The notes below the pieces were generated by a model that did no database searches, was not told the DNA's origin, and saw only the letters and a list, made by a program, of their open reading frames with translations. A stretch of 64,000 bases of DNA from a candidate division WOR-3 bacterium (GTDB lineage Bacteria; Hydrothermota; Tepidihabitantia; Tepidihabitantales; DTDR01), in assembly GCA_039801885.1 (NCBI GenBank), contig JBDRVN010000002.1, positions 2,057 to 66,056 on the forward strand. The letters are read 5' to 3'. This document shows, one piece after another, positions 6,032 to 61,367 of this stretch (positions within the stretch are counted from its first letter, which is position 1; each line of letters opens with the position of its first letter). The position numbers and the translations under genes are program-made.

Positions 6032-6717
6032 CTATCTTTCCGGTTAAGTTCATCAACAATCTTAATAATTTCAATAATATCATTTAACTCATAATCCGCA
6101 TTACTCTCTTTCGTATTAAAAGTATCACCATATCTGGCAAAAGCAGTTTTCATGCCAACTAATTTAGCACCAATAATATCCCTTTCCCGCCAATCGCCAA
6201 CCATTATCACCTCTTCTGGTTTTAAATTTAATATTTTTAATACCAAAAAAAAGGGCTCTTTGTCAGGTTTTTTCTTTTTGGTATCTTCATAGGCAACAAC
6301 ACAATCAAAATAGTTTAAAAATCCCAAATAGCATAATCTTAAATAGGCTTGCAGTTTAGGTGCATCAGAAACAACCGCCAATTTTAACCCCCTTTTAATT
6401 AACTCTAAAAGAGTATATTCCGTATGGGGATAAGGAACCAAACTAAAATCTTTTGCCCGACGATAACCAACAATACCAGCCGCAAGAATTTTATAATCAA
6501 TATTACCAAACTTTTTAGAAAGGAAATCTTGAAAAACTTCTTGGTATTCAATCCCTTTTTCTTCATAGATTTTATAAATCTCTTTTTTTACTTCTTCTTT
6601 ATCCATATTAAGACCAGCATCGATCATATAATTGACCGCTTCCTCAATAGCCAAATCCTTCATTTTGACAAAATCAATCAAGGTATTATCCAAATCAAAA
6701 ACAACGCCTTTGATCAT
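6028..6717 (-). CDS. HAD-superfamily hydrolase
   Basis: Motif I is VVFDLDNTLIDF and motif IV is MVGDWRERD. The ORF-track N-terminal extension (to 6819) is probably not translated. An ATG at 6717 gives MIKGVVFDLD and makes a 4-nt overlap with the upstream HIT gene. Confidence 0.75.
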   Translation of the reverse strand: MIKGVVFDLDNTLIDFVKMKDLAIEEAVNYMIDAGLNMDKEEVKKEIYKIYEEKGIEYQEVFQDFLSKKFGNIDYKILAAGIVGYRRAKDFSLVPYPHTEYTLLELIKRGLKLAVVSDAPKLQAYLRLCYLGFLNYFDCVVAYEDTKKKKPDKEPFFLVLKILNLKPEEVIMVGDWRERDIIGAKLVGMKTAFARYGDTFNTKESNADYELNDIIEIIKIVDELNRKDR

Positions 6718-14825: not shown

Positions 14826-15702
14826 AATTTCTTTAGGAATAGATATCGGTGGTACAAATCTTAAAATCGGCTTAGTAAAAAATAATAAAATTATAAAGAA
14901 AGGAATTTTTAAAACTGAAAAAAATTTTGATAATCAAAGATTTGGTGATTATTTAATTAAAATTATGGAGAAGTTTATAAAAGGTTATAAAATAGATAAA
15001 ATTGGTATCGGTATTGCTGGTTATGTTTTTTATGAAAAAGGGATATTAAAATTTTCGCCCAATTTACCGAGATTAAAAAATTTTCCTTTAAAAAAGATTA
15101 TTGAAAAATATTTTCAAGTTGAAACTTCTGTTTTAAATGATGCCGATGCAATGGTAATTGGTGAATATTTTTATCATAATAAAAGATATAAAAACTTGAT
15201 AACAATAACTTTAGGAACCGGTGTGGGTAGTGGAATTATTTTAAATAATAAATTACTTTTTAATAGTGAGTTTGGTCATACGATATTAATTCCTAATGGT
15301 TATTTATGTTCTTGTGGCAAAAAGGGTTGCGTGGAAAGCTATTTAGGAAGTTATGGAATGTTAAGGATAGCAAAAGATTTTTATAAAAAAGAAACAAAAG
15401 ATTTAACACCCCAAAAAATTTATGAGATGGCAAAGAAAAAAGATAAAAAAGCGTTAAAAACAATTGAGAGATATTCTTATTATTTGGCGATTGCTTTAAG
15501 TAATTTAACAAACTTATTTAATCCGGAAATAATTATATTAAATGGCGGAATAAGTAATATGGGAAGTTTATTGTTAAAATTTATAAAACCAATATTAAAA
15601 GAAAATATTTTTTATTTACCAAAAATAAAAATTTCCAATTTAAAAGATATTGCGGGAATTATTGGTGCGGTTAATTTTTTAAGGTTTGGCGGAGGTGGGT
15701 AG
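14803..15702 (+). CDS. ROK-family sugar kinase (glucokinase-like)
   Basis: It has the LGIDIGGTNLKIG ATP-binding motif and the ROK zinc motif CSCGKKGCVESY. The last about 16 nt overlap tRNA-Sec on the opposite strand. Confidence 0.8.
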   Translation: MKRKDQYKISLGIDIGGTNLKIGLVKNNKIIKKGIFKTEKNFDNQRFGDYLIKIMEKFIKGYKIDKIGIGIAGYVFYEKGILKFSPNLPRLKNFPLKKIIEKYFQVETSVLNDADAMVIGEYFYHNKRYKNLITITLGTGVGSGIILNNKLLFNSEFGHTILIPNGYLCSCGKKGCVESYLGSYGMLRIAKDFYKKETKDLTPQKIYEMAKKKDKKALKTIERYSYYLAIALSNLTNLFNPEIIILNGGISNMGSLLLKFIKPILKENIFYLPKIKISNLKDIAGIIGAVNFLRFGGGG

Positions 15703-15781
15703 GAATCGAACCTACCACAAGCCTTTTGGGCTTGCGAGCGGGTTTGAAGCCCGTCAGGCACACCAGCACCCATCCACCTCC
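15687..15781 (-). tRNA. selC: tRNA-Sec (selC), anticodon UCA
   Basis: The minus-strand read is 95 nt. The 8-bp acceptor GGAGGTGG pairs with CCACCTCC. The anticodon loop is CTTCAAA, which is UCA. The long variable arm has a 6-bp stem, caagcc with ggcttg. The T-arm is GGTTCGATTCC. The discriminator is G and a CCA is encoded. The architecture matches E. coli selC. Confidence 0.8.
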
Positions 15782-18181: not shown

Positions 18182-20830
18182 TTAGTAGAGGATTATCTTT
18201 TTTACTTTTTTACCTTCTTCGATAAGGAAATAGACCCCTCTTTTAATTTTCCTTTCTGCTTTGCTACCGGTGGCATTATAAATAGAGATATTTTTTTGTT
18301 TTAGTTCTTTTAAAGAGAGGGTATTCAAAGAGGTAATACCTTTTTTCTCTTCGCCTTTCTTTATAGAATAAAGTTCTTGAGGTGGAATATAAAGCCAGAG
18401 TTCTAAGGTTTTATTCCCTTTTAAGGCATAAATCCAGCCGTTTACATAAGATAAGGCACCACCATCTTTTACTTTTTTATTGAAAGGTTCGGTGGGAATT
18501 TGGTCTAAAGGTAGCCATTCGTTATTTTCAATATTGTAGATATAAAATTCATTAGTATTATTTCCTTTCAAGGCATAAATATATTTTTCATTATCCGTTG
18601 TTAAAGAAGCACCGGGTCCGACTGTCTTTTTCTTTTGAGCGCTTGGCGTAAAGAAGAGAGGCATTGGTTCTTTTACTTCCCAAGAATCGAGAGCAGGATT
18701 ATAAACATAAAATTCATTACTCTTTCCTTTCAAGAAATAGAGGTATCGGTTTTGGAAATTAATTAAGGCACTTCCTTTTACTGCTCCTTTATTAAGAGTT
18801 CCTTTAGGAATACTCTTTAAGAAAACAAAGGTATCCTTTTCAATATCGTAACAAAGGAACTTATCAGAACCGCCGCCAATAGTAAAGTAGAGTAATTTCC
18901 CATTTTCATTTTCTAAATAAGCAATAGAAGCACCTTCCTTTATTTTGGCAACAGGAATATCTTTTAGTTTTTCCCAAATTTTGGTTTCTAAATTATAGAA
19001 ATAAAATTCATTAGTTTTATTTCCTTTTAAGAGATAGATTTTATTATTACCACTTGTTAAAGCACCACCTTTTACGCCTTTGTTTTTCTCTCCCTTTGGA
19101 ATATCTGCTTCTTGGTACCATTTATCTAAACGAGGGTTATATCGATAAAACTCAATACTATTATTTCCTTTAGTCGCATAGATATAATTATTGATAAATG
19201 TTAAAGCACCTCCGGAACCAATTCGGTATGGACTATATTCTAAGATAGGCATATCTCTTCTTAATACCCAACCGGAAAATCCAGGTGGTGGAACATAGGG
19301 TTTTTTACCGCCGAAAGTACCAACTAAAGTATCATTAGCAGGATTTTGGTCATAAATGTTATTAAGATAGGTTAAGACATTAAAATCACCTTCTTCAATT
19401 CTAAACATTGGGAAAAAGATAGTCCTTTCTTCACCTTCACCTAAGGCATAGACCATTTTATCCTGAAAATAGATTAATTCATCTTTGCTGTTTTTGATAA
19501 GGAAAGTAATTTTGAATGTTTCGGTATGATAACTATAATTCTTTACTTTTACTTGAGGTGAAATAAGAATATCGGTTTCATACTCGCCAATTGGTTGTAA
19601 GATTTCAACCAAACCAACATCACGGAAACTTAATGAGAAATCGTTATCAGAATAGAAATAATCAAACTTTTCATTGTTACTTAAATCCATATCATTTTCC
19701 AATATTGCCTTCATCACAATCTTATATTCATTTTCGCCTACATTAAAGGGAACAAAGGAAATCTCTCTTTCACTAAATCTTTCCATTGTTATTGATAGGG
19801 TATCACCATAAACAATTTGGTCATCTAAATAGATTTCACAAATTGCAAGAAATTCTTCGTCACAATTGCCACAGTTTTCAAAAAGTCCTACTGGAATAAC
19901 TTCTCCTTGTGGTACATAACCAACCGGATAGATAATTTCTTTTATTCCAACATCGTGATATTCACCTTCGTAGACTAAAACATTTTTTGTTAACTCATCA
20001 TTATAAGGGTTTTTATCTAAAGAAAATAAAGTTTTGGCAATAGCAACATATTCACCAGTCGAAGCATTCCAAGGATTAGATGCTTGAATAGTTAAAGTTT
20101 CTTCCGGTGCCAAATAGAGGTTATCAATTATTGTATAATAAACTAATTGGTTATTATTATTTTTAATGCTAATTTCTAAACTAAAATTGTTAGCCGCTTC
20201 CGTGCCGAAATTCTTAATGGTTACTTTTGGATAAATTAAAGAAGGAACTTCTATCTTTCTTGGTCTAAGAATATTGATTACACCAACATCATAAGGAGTT
20301 AATCTAATACCGGAAACATCATCAATATAACAGGAGTTAACACCAAAAAGTCCAACATTTCTAAAAGCAATAAAGATGGGAATTGAGTCAAATTGGGTTA
20401 AAGGGATTACTCTTAAAGAATATTCTTTGCCCTTAAAACCAAAGGCATCAACTCGGGTATAGAAATTCTCCGGTTTATTACCAGTAATTGATACCCAGAC
20501 TTCTAAAGATTCTCGGAAATTTTTATTATGTGCCCGATAATAGAATTTTAATGTATCGTTACCCGGAACTGGGAAAAGTTGTTTTGTTACAAGCCAATCA
20601 TCATTTCTTATATTCTTCTTTTCAAATCTGCTTCGGGCACAAGCCGGTGGTGAATAGTTTTTTGCCGGTGAGCGTCGCCAACAGACAATACCATTATCCA
20701 TATTGTATATCTGCCACCCCTCCGGCGGAAATTTTTTGTCAGAAAAGCTTTCATTAAGAATATTAGAAAAGACGAAAGAGAATATAATAATACTTAAAAC
20801 TAATACATTTTTATTTTTAAGATAAAACAT
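18182..20830 (-). CDS. Large secreted beta-propeller (Kelch-like repeat) protein with T9SS-type C-terminal sorting-like domain
   Basis: It has an N-terminal signal peptide. There are about six repeats of G(G)AL....IY.LKGN.T.EFY.YN in the 500-780 region. The C-terminus is ISIYNATGSK...GVYFLIEEGKKVKKIILY. The likely start is the ATG at 20830, after SD ggaggtg. The ORF-track GTG at 20836 is 2 codons upstream. Confidence 0.6.
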   Translation of the reverse strand: MFYLKNKNVLVLSIIIFSFVFSNILNESFSDKKFPPEGWQIYNMDNGIVCWRRSPAKNYSPPACARSRFEKKNIRNDDWLVTKQLFPVPGNDTLKFYYRAHNKNFRESLEVWVSITGNKPENFYTRVDAFGFKGKEYSLRVIPLTQFDSIPIFIAFRNVGLFGVNSCYIDDVSGIRLTPYDVGVINILRPRKIEVPSLIYPKVTIKNFGTEAANNFSLEISIKNNNNQLVYYTIIDNLYLAPEETLTIQASNPWNASTGEYVAIAKTLFSLDKNPYNDELTKNVLVYEGEYHDVGIKEIIYPVGYVPQGEVIPVGLFENCGNCDEEFLAICEIYLDDQIVYGDTLSITMERFSEREISFVPFNVGENEYKIVMKAILENDMDLSNNEKFDYFYSDNDFSLSFRDVGLVEILQPIGEYETDILISPQVKVKNYSYHTETFKITFLIKNSKDELIYFQDKMVYALGEGEERTIFFPMFRIEEGDFNVLTYLNNIYDQNPANDTLVGTFGGKKPYVPPPGFSGWVLRRDMPILEYSPYRIGSGGALTFINNYIYATKGNNSIEFYRYNPRLDKWYQEADIPKGEKNKGVKGGALTSGNNKIYLLKGNKTNEFYFYNLETKIWEKLKDIPVAKIKEGASIAYLENENGKLLYFTIGGGSDKFLCYDIEKDTFVFLKSIPKGTLNKGAVKGSALINFQNRYLYFLKGKSNEFYVYNPALDSWEVKEPMPLFFTPSAQKKKTVGPGASLTTDNEKYIYALKGNNTNEFYIYNIENNEWLPLDQIPTEPFNKKVKDGGALSYVNGWIYALKGNKTLELWLYIPPQELYSIKKGEEKKGITSLNTLSLKELKQKNISIYNATGSKAERKIKRGVYFLIEEGKKVKKIILY

Positions 20831-21019
20831 ACACACCTCCTGCTAAGTTTATTTCAATTATAAAAATACATTTTTAATGCCATAATTTAGAGAAATATTT
20901 TTAATAAGTTTATAGTTTTTAATGGCTTAAAAATATTACAAAATTAAAATTTAATTATGATGCGACATATATTTAATTAAATTGTAACTTTTTAAAATTG
21001 AAGGACTTTTTATATGCGA

Positions 21020-22156: not shown

Positions 22157-22258
22157 AAAAAATAATATAATCATATAATCAAAGATAAAAAAGTCAATAT
22201 TAAAATTTATGGTAACCTTTTTGGCTCTTTTTTCGTTATATATATAAAGGGAGGAAAT

Positions 22259-22606
22259 ATGAGAAAGTATGAGGAAAGGATAAAAAGATATGAGAAGAAA
22301 CTTGATATTTATTTTCCTAATCGTCTTAAAGAAAAGATGGTGAAGAACTATCAAAAAGAGGCGAAAATATTAGCTGAGATTGATGGTTTAGTTAGTAAAA
22401 TCCTTAATGATTACCAAATTCCTACCGAATATATCTCTTACTATTCTTTTGCTCGGGAATTATATGGGTTAAAAAGGAGATACATAAGTAAGCGGTTAGA
22501 AAAAGAAACGGGGGTATGTTTCCATAAGTGGTTAATGCGCGGATTAGAGAAGAAGGTAATGTTAAAGATAAAGAAAGAGATGGGCAGGTTGCCGTTGGGG
22601 GAATAG
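22259..22606 (+). CDS. Small uncharacterised protein, paralog family member A
   Basis: 115 aa with SD aagggagga. It shares MRK..R..+Y and IPT.Y..Y.SFA.E....+..Y blocks with the ORFs at 47133..47495 and 46819..47136. Confidence 0.5.
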   Translation: MRKYEERIKRYEKKLDIYFPNRLKEKMVKNYQKEAKILAEIDGLVSKILNDYQIPTEYISYYSFARELYGLKRRYISKRLEKETGVCFHKWLMRGLEKKVMLKIKKEMGRLPLGE

Positions 22607-23008
22607 TATAGGAGATAGTATAAGGTTAGGATTTAGATAAATAATCTTTAATTTTCTTAACTTTTGATTATATTTCTATTAAAAGCCCTTTTAAATACTC
22701 TAATTCTTTATTTTTCTTATTAAGTAAATTATGGATTAATTGTTGAAATTTGGAAGGAGCAAGTTTGGATTCCTCTGAGAAACTTTCCGAGCAATCTGAA
22801 AAGTTGAAATAAGATACTTTAATCCCTTCTTTTTACTGAATCATATATTGAGATTTCTAAATTTAATGATAAGGTAGTCACTAAATTTTTACTTCTATTC
22901 TTATCTTAAATAGTTTTATTTCGCCTTCTCTTACAAAGGAGATTGTTCTCTTTCGGCAATAAAAGTAGCTTCCCCTACAAGATAAAGTAATCCTCTTTAT
23001 ATTAATAT

Positions 23009-31877: not shown

Positions 31878-33749
31878 ATGGTTATTGGTACTGCTGGACA
31901 TATCGATCATGGTAAATCTGCTTTAGTAAAAGCCCTTACCGGTTACGACCCCGACCGATTGAAAGAGGAGAAAGAAAGAGGAATGACTACTGATTTGGGT
32001 TTTGCTTTTTATGGTGATAAAGCTACAATAATTGATGTTCCTGGTCACGAAAAATTCATTCGCCATATGGTTGCTGGTGCTTACACAATAGATTTAATAA
32101 TCTTGGTAATTGCTGCTGATGAAGGGATAAAACCGCAGACAATTGAACACCTTAATATTGCTAAATTATTAGGAATTGATGAAGGTATTGTTGTTTTAAC
32201 TAAAAAAGATTTGGTTGATGAAGAAACAATAAAGAATTTAACAAGAGAGATTAGAGAATTTTTAAATGGGGAGGATTATCTAAAAACTGCTCCTATTGTT
32301 TCTTTTTCGGCGATTACTAAAGAAGGATTAGAAGATTTAAAAAGATTGATTGATGAAAAAATTGAAAAAGTTAAATTACGAAAAAAAGAAAGAGGAATAT
32401 TTTTTATGCCGATCGACCGAATATTTACAATTAAAGGATTCGGAACAATTGTTGCTGGTACAATTCTTTCCGGCAAGGCAAAGGTGGGCGATAATTTAGA
32501 ACTTCTTCCTCACAAAATAATAGTAAAGATTCGCGGTATTGAAAGGCACAAAAAACAAGTTTCCGAAGCGAAAATTGGCGAACGGGCAGCATTAAATCTT
32601 TTAGGAATTGAAAAAGAGATAATTGAGAGGGGTAATGTTTTGGCAACCCCCAATATTTTTGAGCCGACATTAAGATTAATTGGTTATCTTAAAATTTTAA
32701 AAAACTCACCAATTTCTTTAAAGAAAAGAGGTGTAATGAAATTTCATATCGGCACAAAAGAGACAATGGCAAAAATTTATCTTTTAGAAAAAGAAGAGAT
32801 GAATCCAAAAGAAGAAGGATTAGCAATTTTTCATTTAGAAGAACCGGTAGTTTGTAGTCCTTATGATCCGTTTATTATAAGAAATTTTAGTTTAAATATT
32901 ACTGTTGGCGGTGGTTTTGTTTTGTTTCCGGAAATACCTTTTGAAAAAATTGATAAAAAATATATAGAAATTTTTAAAAAAATATCTTCAGAAAATGATA
33001 AAAATAAAATTTTTGGGTTTGTTCAATTGAAAAATTTTAACGGTATTGGAATAGAGACTTTGCAGTTATTCACTGGAATTAACCAAGAAAAAATATTAAT
33101 TATTCTTGAAGAGTTAATAAAAGAAAATAAAATAATTAAAATCAAAGAAAATTATTATTCTCAAGAAGAATATAACAATTTAAAAAATAAATTATTAAAA
33201 ATTTTAGAAGAATATCATACAAATTTTCCTTATAAGAAAGGGATTAAAGAAGAAGAATTAAAAAATCGGTTAAATTATCTAAATAAAGATTTATTTGAAA
33301 AAATTATAAATGATTTGATTAGAGAAAAGAAAATAAAAAAAGACAAAGTTTTTCTAAGTCTCTTTGATTATCAGATAAAATTAAATGAAAAAGAAGAAAG
33401 TTATTTAAAAATAATTGAAGAAGAATTTTTAAAAAGAATTTTTTCGCCGCCGGATTTTGAGGAGATAAAAAATCTGTTAAAGATTGAAGAAAGGGAGTTA
33501 AAAAAACTACTCACAATTTTGTTAGAAAATGAAATTCTTTTTAAAGCAGATGAAATTTATTTTCATTATAAAAGTATTGAAAAGGCTTCTCAATTATTAA
33601 AAAACAATTTTCTTAAAAAACCGATTACCGTAAGTGAATTCCGGCAACTTCTGAATACAACAAGAAAATATGCTTTGCCTTTACTTCATTATTTTGATAA
33701 TAAAGGAATTACCGAAAGAAAAGGGGAGTTTCGTTATTTAAAATTGTGA
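31878..33749 (+). CDS. selB: Selenocysteine-specific translation elongation factor SelB
   Basis: 623 aa. The N-terminus MVIGTAGHIDHGKSAL and the DVPGHEKF and TKKD GTPase motifs are present. The long C-terminal winged-helix extension is typical of SelB. It starts 4 nt after the rpoN stop. Confidence 0.85.
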   Translation: MVIGTAGHIDHGKSALVKALTGYDPDRLKEEKERGMTTDLGFAFYGDKATIIDVPGHEKFIRHMVAGAYTIDLIILVIAADEGIKPQTIEHLNIAKLLGIDEGIVVLTKKDLVDEETIKNLTREIREFLNGEDYLKTAPIVSFSAITKEGLEDLKRLIDEKIEKVKLRKKERGIFFMPIDRIFTIKGFGTIVAGTILSGKAKVGDNLELLPHKIIVKIRGIERHKKQVSEAKIGERAALNLLGIEKEIIERGNVLATPNIFEPTLRLIGYLKILKNSPISLKKRGVMKFHIGTKETMAKIYLLEKEEMNPKEEGLAIFHLEEPVVCSPYDPFIIRNFSLNITVGGGFVLFPEIPFEKIDKKYIEIFKKISSENDKNKIFGFVQLKNFNGIGIETLQLFTGINQEKILIILEELIKENKIIKIKENYYSQEEYNNLKNKLLKILEEYHTNFPYKKGIKEEELKNRLNYLNKDLFEKIINDLIREKKIKKDKVFLSLFDYQIKLNEKEESYLKIIEEEFLKRIFSPPDFEEIKNLLKIEERELKKLLTILLENEILFKADEIYFHYKSIEKASQLLKNNFLKKPITVSEFRQLLNTTRKYALPLLHYFDNKGITERKGEFRYLKL

Positions 33750-34543: not shown

Positions 34544-34621
34544 ATATATAAGATAAAATTGCTCTTTGAAAATTTGGGAAGTGTGCCTTGAATGAAAAAT
34601 AGTCCCTTATAATTTTTCGCA

Positions 34622-36183
<1,562 letters not shown>

Positions 36184-36335
36184 TTACGAGTTATCTTTCA
36201 TTCAAGGCACGCTTCTTTTTTTATTTTTTATAAATATTTTTTTCTTTTTATCTCAAAATTAAACCCCACCTTTTAAAAGTCTTTTAAAAAATTATTTTTA
36301 TAAATTGACTTCTTTGGAAATATCTTTTAAAATTA

Positions 36336-46818: not shown

Positions 46819-47136
46819 TTATTTACCTTTTAACAGAAGAAAATACAACTCCTTTAATACCTCCTTTTCCAATTTATTTCTTACCATTTCTTTCTTAATG
46901 AGATTTTCAACTTCTTGTAATCTTCTTTTCTTTATCAATTTGTATGCCCTTCTTAGAAAGTTAAGATAACCCAAATAAAAGGTTTCTTGAATAGGATAAT
47001 TCTTCAAAATTTCCTTCAACTTCTCTTCGTATTTTAAGAGCTCTTTCATTTGGTAATAATATTTATAAGTTGATTTTGGGTATTCACAACCGAAATTAAA
47101 ATAGTATTTACTCACCCTTTTCTTTAGTTTTCTCAT
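46819..47136 (-). CDS. Small uncharacterised protein, paralog family member C
   Basis: 105 aa. It reads MRK..+R.+KYY...EYP...FYLGYLNFLRRAYKL. It overlaps the upstream paralog B by 4 nt (ATGA). Confidence 0.5.
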   Translation of the reverse strand: MRKLKKRVSKYYFNFGCEYPKSTYKYYYQMKELLKYEEKLKEILKNYPIQETFYLGYLNFLRRAYKLIKKRRLQEVENLIKKEMVRNKLEKEVLKELYFLLLKGK

Positions 47137-47495
47137 AAGATAATACCAAACAAATCAATCCTTAATTTTTCCATAATCTCTTTATTCAAGCCCTTTGCTT
47201 CCCATTTACTTTCACTAATCGCAACAAGTTTATAAAGCATAATCCCCGAATATTTATTAGTAAGCCGCCAGATTTCCTTCGCATAAGAGAAATAAAATAC
47301 ATATTGGGTAGGTATTGTTTCCGGATGGGTGTCTAAGATAGTCTTTATCTTGGTATCCAGTGCCGCAAGTTCACCATATTTTTCAACAATATTCTCAATC
47401 ATCTGCTCTTTTAGACTTTCATATCTTTTCTTATTAATTTCTGGGTCTAATTTTGCGATATACTTATTAACTCTTTGATAAGCGTTTCTTACCAT
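47133..47495 (-). CDS. Small uncharacterised protein, paralog family member B
   Basis: 120 aa. The block RVNKYIAKLD...IPTQYVFYFSYAKEIWRLTNKY is clearly homologous to ORF 22259..22606. Confidence 0.5.
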   Translation of the reverse strand: MVRNAYQRVNKYIAKLDPEINKKRYESLKEQMIENIVEKYGELAALDTKIKTILDTHPETIPTQYVFYFSYAKEIWRLTNKYSGIMLYKLVAISESKWEAKGLNKEIMEKLRIDLFGIIL

Positions 47496-47650
47496 AATAT
47501 CCTCCTTTTTATTTATTTTCCCTTACATATATATAACGAAAAAGAAGGGCAAAAGGTTACCACTTTTTTTAATATTGACTTTTATCAATTTAATTTTATA
47601 ATTTATGATATTGAGGGAAAAATTTTTGCTCTTTGGCAATTGGGTTAAGA

Positions 47651-47769
47651 CTTTTTTGATTAAAAAGAAATTGCGACATTATTAGAATATATAGAGAAGG
47701 GAAAAAACCGCGATGTTTATTCTGAATAGTCAAAATCTATTCCCTGATTAAAAAGGGATTGCGACATAG
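47651..47769 (+). repeat. Direct repeats gattaaaaag(a/g)(a/g)attgcgacat (x2) upstream of the RHH gene; a third partial copy is downstream at about 48058-48090
   Basis: Read directly. The first copy is gattaaaaagaaattgcgacat at about 47651-47675. The second is gattaaaaagggattgcgacat at about 47745-47768. The downstream copy is agtcaaaacttttcccctaattaaaaagggat, about 26 of 32 identical to the second upstream copy. Confidence 0.6.
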
Positions 47770-47803
47770 AATTAACAGATTTGATTTTAAAATGGAGGTG
47801 AAA

Positions 47804-48016
47804 ATGGCAAGAAAGTTATTTAGTTTATATTTTGATGAGGATATTTATAATAAAATAGTTGAGTGGGCAGAAGGGATAGGGATTTCACGAGCGAGATTGA
47901 TTAATGTAGTTTTCAACTTCATATTCGGACGGGCAGGAATAAAAAATGTAATTAATGATAAAATATATGAATTATGTAAAAAGGCAATTGAAGAATATGA
48001 AAAAATACAGAAATAA
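47804..48016 (+). CDS. Ribbon-helix-helix (CopG/Arc-like) small DNA-binding protein
   Basis: The predicted pattern is a beta strand followed by two helices (KLFSLYFDEDIYNKIVEWAEGIGISRARLINVVFNFIF). The strong SD ggaggtg precedes the ATG at 47804. The ORF-track start at 47759 lacks an SD. Confidence 0.55.
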   Translation: MARKLFSLYFDEDIYNKIVEWAEGIGISRARLINVVFNFIFGRAGIKNVINDKIYELCKKAIEEYEKIQK

Positions 48017-48229
48017 GGAGAAATGATGCAGCAAGGTGTGGTTCTCCATCAGTCAAAACTTTTCCCCTAATTAAAAAGGGATCGGTGGTTTAAATCGAAA
48101 TTTGGAATGTGAAAAAAGAGAAAAATTATTAATTCTTATTTCCACATTTGCTAAACTTTTCCTGATAAAAAGGTTTAATTTTCTTGCTATTGATATTTTC
48201 TAAAAATTGATTATATTTTAATCTAAAGG

Positions 48230-58098: not shown

Positions 58099-58115
58099 TA
58101 AAAGAAGCGGCGCCT

Positions 58116-61124
<3,009 letters not shown>

Positions 61125-61150
61125 TCCGCTTCTTTTATAAAATTCTTAAC

Positions 61151-61267
<117 letters not shown>

Positions 61268-61367
61268 AGTTTTTGTTTTTTAACCTTAATTAATTTAAAA
61301 TTAAGTAAAATTTTTAAAATTTATAAATCATTGAAAAATAAGAAATTAAATTAATAAAAAAATTTTT

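Follow-up and report, generated by a model that had tools for sequence, protein, structure and literature searches.

Chromosomal genes of a candidate division WOR-3 bacterium encode homologues of the SIRV2-type capsid protein of archaeal filamentous viruses

Introduction

Adnaviria, one of the six realms of viruses, is defined by the SIRV2-type major capsid protein (MCP). Rudiviruses have one capsid gene, and their capsomer is a homodimer. Where two capsid paralogues are paired, they form a pseudo-symmetric heterodimer around A-form DNA (PMC6105669). The SIRV2-type capsid protein has been described as 'exclusive to archaeal filamentous viruses' (PMC9246712), its fold as unique (PMC12282232), and the realm as unconnected to viruses of bacteria (PMC10848233); a 2025 preprint used an unrelated DUF732 protein as the outgroup for its capsid-protein trees. 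No report of bacterial or cellular homologues of the fold was found in the literature, the coverage of which was incomplete, and a prior description is possible. Here, three small genes (A, B and C) are described from a 64,000-nucleotide stretch of DNA of a candidate division WOR-3 bacterium (current NCBI name Caldifarciminota), positions 2,057 to 66,056 of contig JBDRVN010000002.1 (assembly GCA_039801885.1), hereafter called the window. Their products are almost certainly homologous to the SIRV2-type MCP. The fold itself is known from viruses, and its occurrence in a bacterial cell is without precedent.

Two other described systems bear on how such proteins may be understood. The alpha/beta-type small acid-soluble spore proteins of Bacillus and Clostridium are induced through alternative sigma factors, coat chromosomal DNA, shift it towards the A-form and protect it. 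The double jelly-roll capsid protein has non-viral cellular relatives, which have informed ideas on the origin of capsids (PMC8812541). The latter is a precedent for a viral hallmark capsid protein with cellular kin, in a different fold and a different realm.

Results

Three paralogous genes at two loci

The open reading frames (ORFs) of interest lie at two loci, A alone and B with C. A distance of 25 kb, in which the 16S rRNA gene is situated, separates the two.

22259..22606, + strand: ORF A, 115 amino acids (aa), lone copy (A-type), isoelectric point (pI) 9.8, net charge +13
47133..47495, - strand: ORF B, 120 aa, first gene of the coupled pair (B-type), pI 9.2
46819..47136, - strand: ORF C, 105 aa, second gene of the pair and divergent paralogue (C-type), pI 9.9, net charge +16

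All three products are basic, with pI values of 9.2-9.9 and net charges from +4 to +16. A preliminary description of the window had picked out the same three ORFs of 105-120 aa, had noted the overlap of B and C, and had proposed by eye that they form one family. The overlap is an ATGA at 47133-47136, in which the stop codon of B overlaps the start codon of C. The proposed kinship held when it was scored. A and B are 31% identical over 114 residues (BLASTP E=2e-16). C is much more diverged than A and B, and its pairwise matches to A (E=1e-4) and to B (E=0.005) are both weak. Profile-profile comparison (hhalign) of the A/B group with the C group gave a collinear alignment across 95 columns with E=4.5e-5, and a hidden Markov model (HMM) of the family built without any C-type sequence recovered C at 33.1 bits (E=4.4e-9) in a search of 1679 ORFs, as compared to 11.1 bits for the best of 1000 composition-preserving shuffles. 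These results demonstrate that A, B and C are paralogues of one family. No fourth copy was found in the window when the family HMM was run against all six-frame ORFs; the copies are A, B and C only.

The central block that had been aligned by eye, IPT.Y..Y.SFA.E...L..KY, is the best-conserved region of the family. An N-terminal MRK, which had been given for all three proteins, is not common to them, as B starts MVRNAYQR. A is followed, as described, by about 400 bp of noncoding DNA (402 bp without an ORF of at least 40 aa).

Orthologues in other assemblies were compared to assess selection on the genes. The ratio of nonsynonymous to synonymous substitution rates (dN/dS) was 0.06-0.25 overall at dS of 0.7-2.2, with values of 0.17 for A, 0.10-0.25 for B and 0.06 for C. 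A, B and C are therefore real genes under purifying selection. Orthologues of A are present in four other assemblies at 62-73% identity. In three assemblies (L002, at 6360-6605; L003; L004) a stop codon leaves the C-type gene only 81 aa long, with B intact, and the C partner may be dispensable or decaying at that locus. It was also observed that a genome with the shortened C-type gene has a second, intact B-C pair.

Sequence relationship to the SIRV2-type capsid protein

For A, B and C themselves, nothing above threshold was found in Pfam, NCBIfam, PHROGs or PADLOC, which agrees with the earlier view of small helical proteins of no recognisable family; they are uncharacterised in bacteria. Word-indexed homologue searches returned close WOR-3 relatives only, one of which, deposited under candidate division WOR-3 bacterium, is 100% identical to A. 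An exhaustive HMM search was performed with an alignment of WOR-3 sequences alone as the query and 1.84 billion representative proteins as the target. The search recovered 458 proteins at E<=1e-3, including 60 at E<=1e-10, and the majority of the 458 are 115-130 aa long and were matched along their full length.

When 118 of these 458 family members were scanned individually against Pfam, 28 matched PF12193 (Sulf_coat_C, Sulfolobus virus coat protein), with a best E-value of 4.6e-12, while PF21660 (filamentous archaeal virus coat protein) and PF25647 (SFV1 VP4) were each matched by six of the 118. The family profile also matched capsid proteins in the PDB: 6wq0 (SSRV1) at 6e-8, 3j9x (SIRV2) at 2e-7, 6d5f at 5e-7, and chains A and B of 5w7g, which are both AFV1 capsid proteins, at 2e-4, in addition to 3f2e, the C-terminal domain of the SIRV coat protein. 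A pairwise chain that is full-length in both steps leads from B to the relative P0057 (E=1e-16) and from P0057 to residues 8-127 of the SSRV1 capsid protein (E=2e-13), and an A-like relative, P0029, matches PF12193 at E=1.3e-4. In the N-terminal helix, an almost invariant arginine (R8) and a K-Y..K motif line up with R/K positions in the corresponding helices of SIRV2 and SSRV1. Because direct matches of A, B and C fail, the sequence link to the capsids is transitive; by this route, sequence comparison places the three proteins in the SIRV2-type capsid superfamily.

Predicted structures of B and C

AlphaFold models were compared to known structures using Foldseek. The model of B (predicted local distance difference test score, pLDDT, 96.9) has five helices, of which the N-terminal one is 38 residues long. 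Its top four matches in the PDB were SIRV2 3j9x, SSRV1 6wq0, AFV1 ORF140 3fbz and the SIRV coat fragment 3f2e, with probabilities of 0.97-1.0 and template modelling (TM) scores of 0.55-0.70, whereas the next match had a probability of 0.13. The model of C (pLDDT 91.5) also has five helices. Its best match was AFV1 ORF132 3fbl, with a probability of 1.0 and a root-mean-square deviation of 1.6 A over 80 columns, followed by SIRV2 3j9x (0.92) and AFV1 in the virion, 5w7g_B (0.69). Rudiviral and lipothrixviral capsid proteins again ranked at the top in a library of viral structures. By their predicted structures, the only high-probability matches of B and C are adnavirian capsid proteins.

Both kinds of comparison had been proposed in the preliminary description. 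The profile search did lead to a known family, that of the SIRV2-type viral capsid and not a housekeeping family, and the Foldseek search with the models of B and C returned capsid proteins of archaeal filamentous viruses.

Comparison with described capsid proteins

The rudivirus MCP (SIRV2 3j9x; SSRV1 6wq0; PF12193) is about 120-134 aa long and is built, like the proteins described here, from a long N-terminal helix and a C-terminal helical bundle. The alignment between them is full-length and collinear and includes a conserved R..K(Y/W)..K motif near the N-terminus, and the viral pattern of one gene and one homodimer resembles the lone A. The two differ in that the viral protein is encoded in the linear genome of a virus of a hyperthermophilic archaeon, whereas A, B and C lie in a bacterial chromosome among housekeeping genes. 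Identity to the viral protein is about 16-20%, and the WOR-3 genes have no virion genes nearby and an ECF-like promoter (described below).

The MCP1/MCP2 pairs (AFV1 ORF132/ORF140, 3fbl, 3fbz and 5w7g; SFV1 VP4/VP5, 6d5f) are adjacent, strongly diverged paralogues, as are B and C. The likeness extends to the individual partners, in that C best matches ORF132 while B matches ORF140 and the rudiviral proteins. The viral pairs belong to enveloped virions, whereas no envelope, virion or viral genome is found here, and the putative B-C heterodimer is predicted from the translational coupling, with C shortened in some relatives. The arrangement of a lone A and a coupled B-C fits the homodimer/heterodimer pattern of the viral capsids, the dimers themselves being predicted.

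Conserved DNA around the genes

A block of 104 nt is shared by the upstream regions of A and B at 72% identity, and at both loci it contains a promoter-like element directed towards the gene as well as a divergent sigma-70-like promoter.

22211..22243, + strand: promoter-like element upstream of A (GGTAAC at 22211-22216, 17 nt, CGTTATATAT, with CGT at 22234-22236)
47529..47561, - strand: promoter-like element upstream of B (GGTAAC at 47561-47556, 17 nt, CGTTATATAT, with CGT at 47538-47536)
22170..22197, - strand: divergent sigma-70-like promoter at the A locus, TTGACT-N16-TATGAT (10/12 matches), directed towards the M16 peptidase gene
47575..47602, + strand: divergent sigma-70-like promoter at the B locus, TTGACT-N16-TATAAT (11/12 matches), directed away from B
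22605..22624, + strand: 3' motif at A, AGTATAGGAGATAGTATAAG, which overlaps the A stop codon
46725..46744, - strand: 3' motif at C, AGTATAGGAGATATTATAGG, about 75 nt past the C stop codon

The sequence TYCGTYATWTAT occurs at two sites only in the 64-kb window, upstream of A and upstream of B, as compared to 0.07 occurrences expected. Across six A-type and B-type loci the invariant core is GGTAAC, 17 nt and CGT(T/C)ATATATAT, followed by AAGGAGG; at B, AAGGAGG follows the promoter-like element as a strong consensus ribosome-binding site. AAC-N17-CGT is present upstream of the A-type or B-type gene in 9 of 10 close loci, the remaining one (L010) carrying a variant, and variants of the element are also found in more distant lineages (L010, L023 and L015). 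Promoters of extracytoplasmic function (ECF) sigma factors have AAC at -35 and CGT at -10 with 16-17 nt between them. By comparison with this pattern, the A and B units appear to be driven by one ECF-type alternative-sigma promoter. The rRNA genes and neighbouring genes have ordinary TTGACT/TATAAT promoters. One further match to the promoter motif (33710-33737) falls within the coding sequence of SelB and was dismissed as chance.

The 20-nt 3' motif, (C/A)(A/T)GTATAG(G/T)AGAT..TATA, has two matches in the window as compared to 0.01 expected. It is kept after A-type and C-type genes in other genomes, and in seven B-C loci it is found exactly once per locus, always downstream of C. The 3' region of C was considered as an RNA element and rejected, as its RNAalifold structure is weak (-6.6 kcal/mol). 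An Rfam search of both loci gave sub-threshold noise only, with no riboswitch or leader in the conserved 5' block. Two contigs from other assemblies (L005 and L012) break off 10-13 nt past an A-type stop codon, precisely where the conserved 3' motif lies, and a third contig (L013) starts 11 nt before an A-type start codon. These breaks suggest a repeated sequence that interrupts assemblies at the A-type unit.

Chromosomal setting

The window is bacterial chromosome with 32% G+C. Its RNA genes are those for 16S, 23S and 5S rRNA and for four tRNAs, tRNA-Sec among them, and it also encodes SelB. A is flanked on one side by genes for a family 2 glycosyltransferase (GT2), a GreA-like factor, a Kelch-repeat protein and an M16 peptidase, and on the other by those for DprA, Obg, a cytidylyltransferase, RsmD and CTP synthase (PyrG). 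The B-C pair lies between TopA, BamA, TamB, PriA and a lipoprotein on one side and a small ribbon-helix-helix (RHH)-like ORF, tRNA-Ser, an aminotransferase, aspartokinase and ScpB on the other. No other virus-like gene was found within about 8 kb on either side of the A or B-C loci.

These positions are shared among relatives. The order PriA-lipoprotein-C-B recurs in three other WOR-3 assemblies, and in another assembly the GT2-GreA-Kelch block is likewise followed by an A-type gene. The same positions are occupied in several species at 62-88% protein identity. In the genome SKYB26, which also carries an A-type gene, a further B-C pair is located between a porin-like gene and purH; the lipoprotein gene is found neither at this second B-C locus nor at the A locus. 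Downstream (3') of the second SKYB26 pair (L001, 6792-8304), a purH-like frame appears to be split into ORFs of 66 aa and 465 aa in a stretch with no called gene, which may be a frameshift or an assembly error.

No relative was found in IMG/VR in a search with a narrow alignment, and tblastn of B against GenBank phages gave no match. The genes are not encoded by a linear double-stranded DNA archaeal filamentous virus with terminal inverted repeats. As the fold and the sequence relationship are those of the capsid and such a viral genome is absent, the proteins are taken to be cellular homologues of the capsid protein and not a virus. A, B and C are very probably host genes, and they are best read as vertically inherited chromosomal genes.

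The RHH-like ORF and repeats beside B

The preliminary description had placed the pair next to an RHH regulator and a tRNA gene. The tRNA, a tRNA-Ser, is present. The regulator did not stand up: the ORF (ATG at 47804, end at 48016, + strand) has sub-threshold RHH/Arc matches only (E 0.04-0.09) and is absent from this locus in relatives. It is flanked by direct repeats (window 47640-48088) that resemble repeats of the clustered regularly interspaced short palindromic repeat (CRISPR) type.

47729-47765, - strand: CRISPR-repeat-like repeat, GTCGCAATCCCTTTTTAATCAGGGAATAGATTTTGAC

A copy of GTCGCAATCCCTTTTTAATCAGGGAATAGATTTTGAC that is 84% identical lies at 48051-48082 and a degenerate one at 47640-47677, the latter 88 nt from the first. 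Rfam gave weak matches of the repeats to CRISPR-DR35 and CRISPR-DR8 (E about 0.8), and the 51-nt 'spacer' beside B had no match in the relatives' loci compared, the virus-like contig included. The RHH/repeat block of about 650 nt is not found in relatives, and in L002 and L004 tRNA-Ser lies about 125 nt from B. The RHH-like ORF is a genome-specific insertion.

The wider family

The family includes both chromosomal members and members on virus-like DNA, and every named member of the clusters is labelled WOR-3. A B-type gene is also present on a contig of 1.56 Mb. Chromosomal members adjoin class V FBPase, MoxR, YceD and SppA (L021); purD, IMP dehydrogenase, thioredoxin and clpB (L022); ribosomal protein L27, pyruvate-ferredoxin oxidoreductase and glnA (L023); or purL, feoAB and fur (L024). 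The last of these, from a distant lineage, consists of B-like and C-like genes that overlap by 4 nt, and the coupled pair is therefore old. In a more distant WOR-3 lineage with 47% G+C (L015, 4262-7084; also L016 and L017), a single homologue that is 43% identical to B lies directly 3' of an ECF sigma-factor gene and a 268-aa gene. The L015 homologue comes with a CCGTTATTTAT element of its own and with a strong terminator hairpin, and it is followed by Peptidase_M15_3 and HTH_36 genes.

Two metagenome contigs that carry the member P0087 (L019, 1-17257, and L020) are 17 kb long, have 29% G+C and are virus-like, being densely filled with small genes without a family match. Four SIRV2-like capsid paralogues are present: one of 100 aa, one of 350 aa with LamG, one of 442 aa with DUF2341 and LamG, and one of 124 aa. 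The other genes include glycosyltransferase-like and methyltransferase genes and those for an 827-aa SNase-PEGA (nuclease-PEGA) protein and fibre-like proteins. These contigs may represent a new adnavirus-like virus.

Some members have unusual architectures. P0040, a metagenomic protein of 258 aa, has two tandem capsid-like domains in one polypeptide and is possibly a single-chain 'dimer'; P0087, P0089, P0133, P0150 and P0166 are fusions to LamG, DUF2341, coiled-coil or beta-rich C-terminal domains. A 2792-bp contig binned as Candidatus Aenigmatarchaeota (L006, JAWAJM010000123.1) encodes proteins 86% identical to B and 95% identical to C with the WOR-3 promoter motif, and is most likely a misbinned WOR-3 contig and not an archaeal occurrence.

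Other features of the window

The window also contains selenocysteine machinery (tRNA-Sec and a 623-aa SelB) and a split rRNA operon (15687-15781, 31878-33749, 34618-36184 and 58114-61268), in which the 16S gene is 22 kb from the 23S-5S genes. The rRNA genes have 52-56% G+C as compared to 32% for the window; the 16S value, 55.6%, is not decisive as to thermophily. The Kelch-repeat gene (18182-20836, - strand, 884 aa) contains four diverged 77-nt direct repeats at 18387-19213, which are presumably coding repeats of the Kelch beta-propeller.

Discussion

The reading favoured overall is that A, B and C are inducible bacterial DNA-coating proteins of the SIRV2 capsid fold. Grounds for accepting it and for doubting it are about evenly balanced, and DNA coating as the function, which is argued by analogy with the viral proteins, is plausible though short of probable. 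The working unit would be a dimer, as in the viruses. A would form a homodimer like the single rudivirus capsid protein, and B and C, made in equal amounts by translational coupling, would form a pseudo-symmetric heterodimer like the two lipothrixvirus capsid proteins. Wrapping of double-stranded DNA would fall to the long N-terminal helices, in which Arg and Lys residues are conserved, and one alternative (ECF-type) sigma-factor promoter would drive both the A unit and the B-C unit. In this view the dimers would act as an inducible nucleoid-associated protein, by which host DNA is compacted or protected during stress and is possibly driven towards the A-form, in the manner of the viral proteins. 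The promoter shared by A and B-C is what suggests an inducible system that compacts or protects DNA, while the lone A and the coupled B-C, the full-length N-terminal arm with its conserved Arg and K-Y..K, and the basic character of the proteins point to DNA-coating dimers.

The three proteins are small (105-120 aa) and basic (pI 9.2-9.9), as is expected of nucleoid-associated proteins, and no HU, IHF, Dps or small acid-soluble spore protein match was found for them in Pfam or NCBIfam. The likeness to small acid-soluble spore proteins would lie in the proposed role only, which is hypothetical; the folds are unrelated and there is no sequence similarity. WOR-3 bacteria are not known to sporulate.

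Several observations weigh against this reading, some at the level of homology and others at that of function. A, B and C fall below every Pfam threshold, the match of B to PF12193 (E=0.044) included, and a profile of WOR-3 sequences alone matches no capsid sequence in the PDB. At 2e-3 to 0.4 the Foldseek E-values are modest, as a result of the small helical-bundle build of the proteins, and the alignments behind the models include family members that match PF12193. The N-terminal arm of B has a low net charge (+2 for residues 1-20 and 0 for residues 21-55), and the positive charge of A and C is mostly in the C-terminal domain, a distribution that does not clearly match that of the viral proteins. 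Dimerisation, DNA binding and induction of the A-form are extrapolated from viral homologues at 16-20% identity. The truncation of C to 81 aa in three assemblies means that B and C cannot everywhere form an obligate heterodimer. Assignment of the promoter to the ECF type is a match to a consensus from the literature, and a tblastn probe found no ECF sigma gene in the window. A probe for HU gave no match in the window either, a result that is uninformative.

The low charge of the B arm would also suit a structural role away from DNA, as a protein filament, a scaffold or an envelope-stress factor in which DNA wrapping has been lost. ECF-type promoters commonly belong to envelope-stress regulons, a conserved lipoprotein gene follows B-C at the PriA locus, and some members are fused to LamG, DUF2341 or other beta-rich domains, all of which are consistent with such a role. 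The arm is nevertheless full-length and keeps its R/K positions, and DNA wrapping is the only role described for it in the viruses; A, B and C are all basic, and the lipoprotein gene is confined to the one locus. A non-DNA role is judged unlikely.

The host copies could instead act in antiviral interference, co-assembling with or poisoning the capsids of infecting adnavirus-like filamentous viruses as a dominant-negative decoy. Capsid-derived restriction factors in animals are an analogue. The presence of the family on the virus-like contigs L019 and L020, the G+C content of which (29%) is close to that of WOR-3 genomes (about 30%), lends some weight to this idea, and B is 32% identical to one of their four paralogues (E=8e-13). 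Several diverged copies per genome and an alternative-sigma promoter would also fit an induced response. The dN/dS values of 0.06-0.25 indicate steady purifying selection with no signature of an arms race, however, and the loci lie outside defence islands and have no PADLOC matches. No WOR-3 virus is known, and the characterised adnavirians all infect archaea (PMC12282232). An antiviral decoy is a decidedly improbable explanation.

It is highly improbable that the genes are viral cargo left behind by a filamentous virus, whether integrated or defective, or by some other mobile element. Such an origin would account for a fold otherwise known from viruses only (PMC9246712; PMC12282232), for the tRNA gene and the small genome-specific insertion with flanking direct repeats that adjoin the B locus, and for the Peptidase_M15_3 and HTH_36 genes after the L015-L017 homologue. 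It is difficult to reconcile with two loci 25 kb apart around the 16S rRNA gene that have no virus-like neighbours, with genes that appear at fixed chromosomal positions, apparently lacking att sites or terminal repeats at their flanks, in several species at 62-88% protein identity, and with strong purifying selection and the lack of an IMG/VR match. The characterised adnavirians, moreover, are all lytic and have linear genomes (PMC12282232).

The preliminary description had suggested a toxin-antitoxin, abortive-infection or other conflict system, which here would be a type II pair of B and C with A as an orphan copy, and there is very little chance of this being correct: two small overlapping genes co-transcribed in one operon, with an RHH-like ORF and a tRNA gene nearby, do recall such modules, but B and C are paralogues that share one fold, the scans of Pfam, NCBIfam, PHROGs and PADLOC matched no toxin, antitoxin or defence family, the RHH-like ORF is not conserved at the locus, and the genes sit in a housekeeping context with vertical distribution and synteny beside PriA, neither mobile nor patchy.

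Taken at its fullest, the reading of A, B and C as DNA-coating proteins would describe a conserved cellular branch of the SIRV2 fold in Bacteria (WOR-3/Caldifarciminota and other uncultured lineages), with homodimers and heterodimers that form an inducible, capsid-like chromatin on the DNA of the cell itself and possibly hold that DNA in the A-form. This full statement is possible and is held to be somewhat unlikely.

Chromosomal homologues would be the first cellular relatives of the adnavirian capsid. The origin of Adnaviria would become testable, as a choice between a host DNA-binding protein recruited by viruses and a viral gene domesticated by cells; whichever direction the relationship took, if true, the cellular branch would be an ancestor or a domesticated copy. 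The proteins are possibly a new class of bacterial DNA-coating protein that is testable in vitro, and as they are small, expression should be easy. The finding would also widen the search space for adnavirus-like viruses beyond archaea and, if true, together with the low-G+C virus-like contig L019, would raise the possibility that adnavirus-like viruses infect bacteria.

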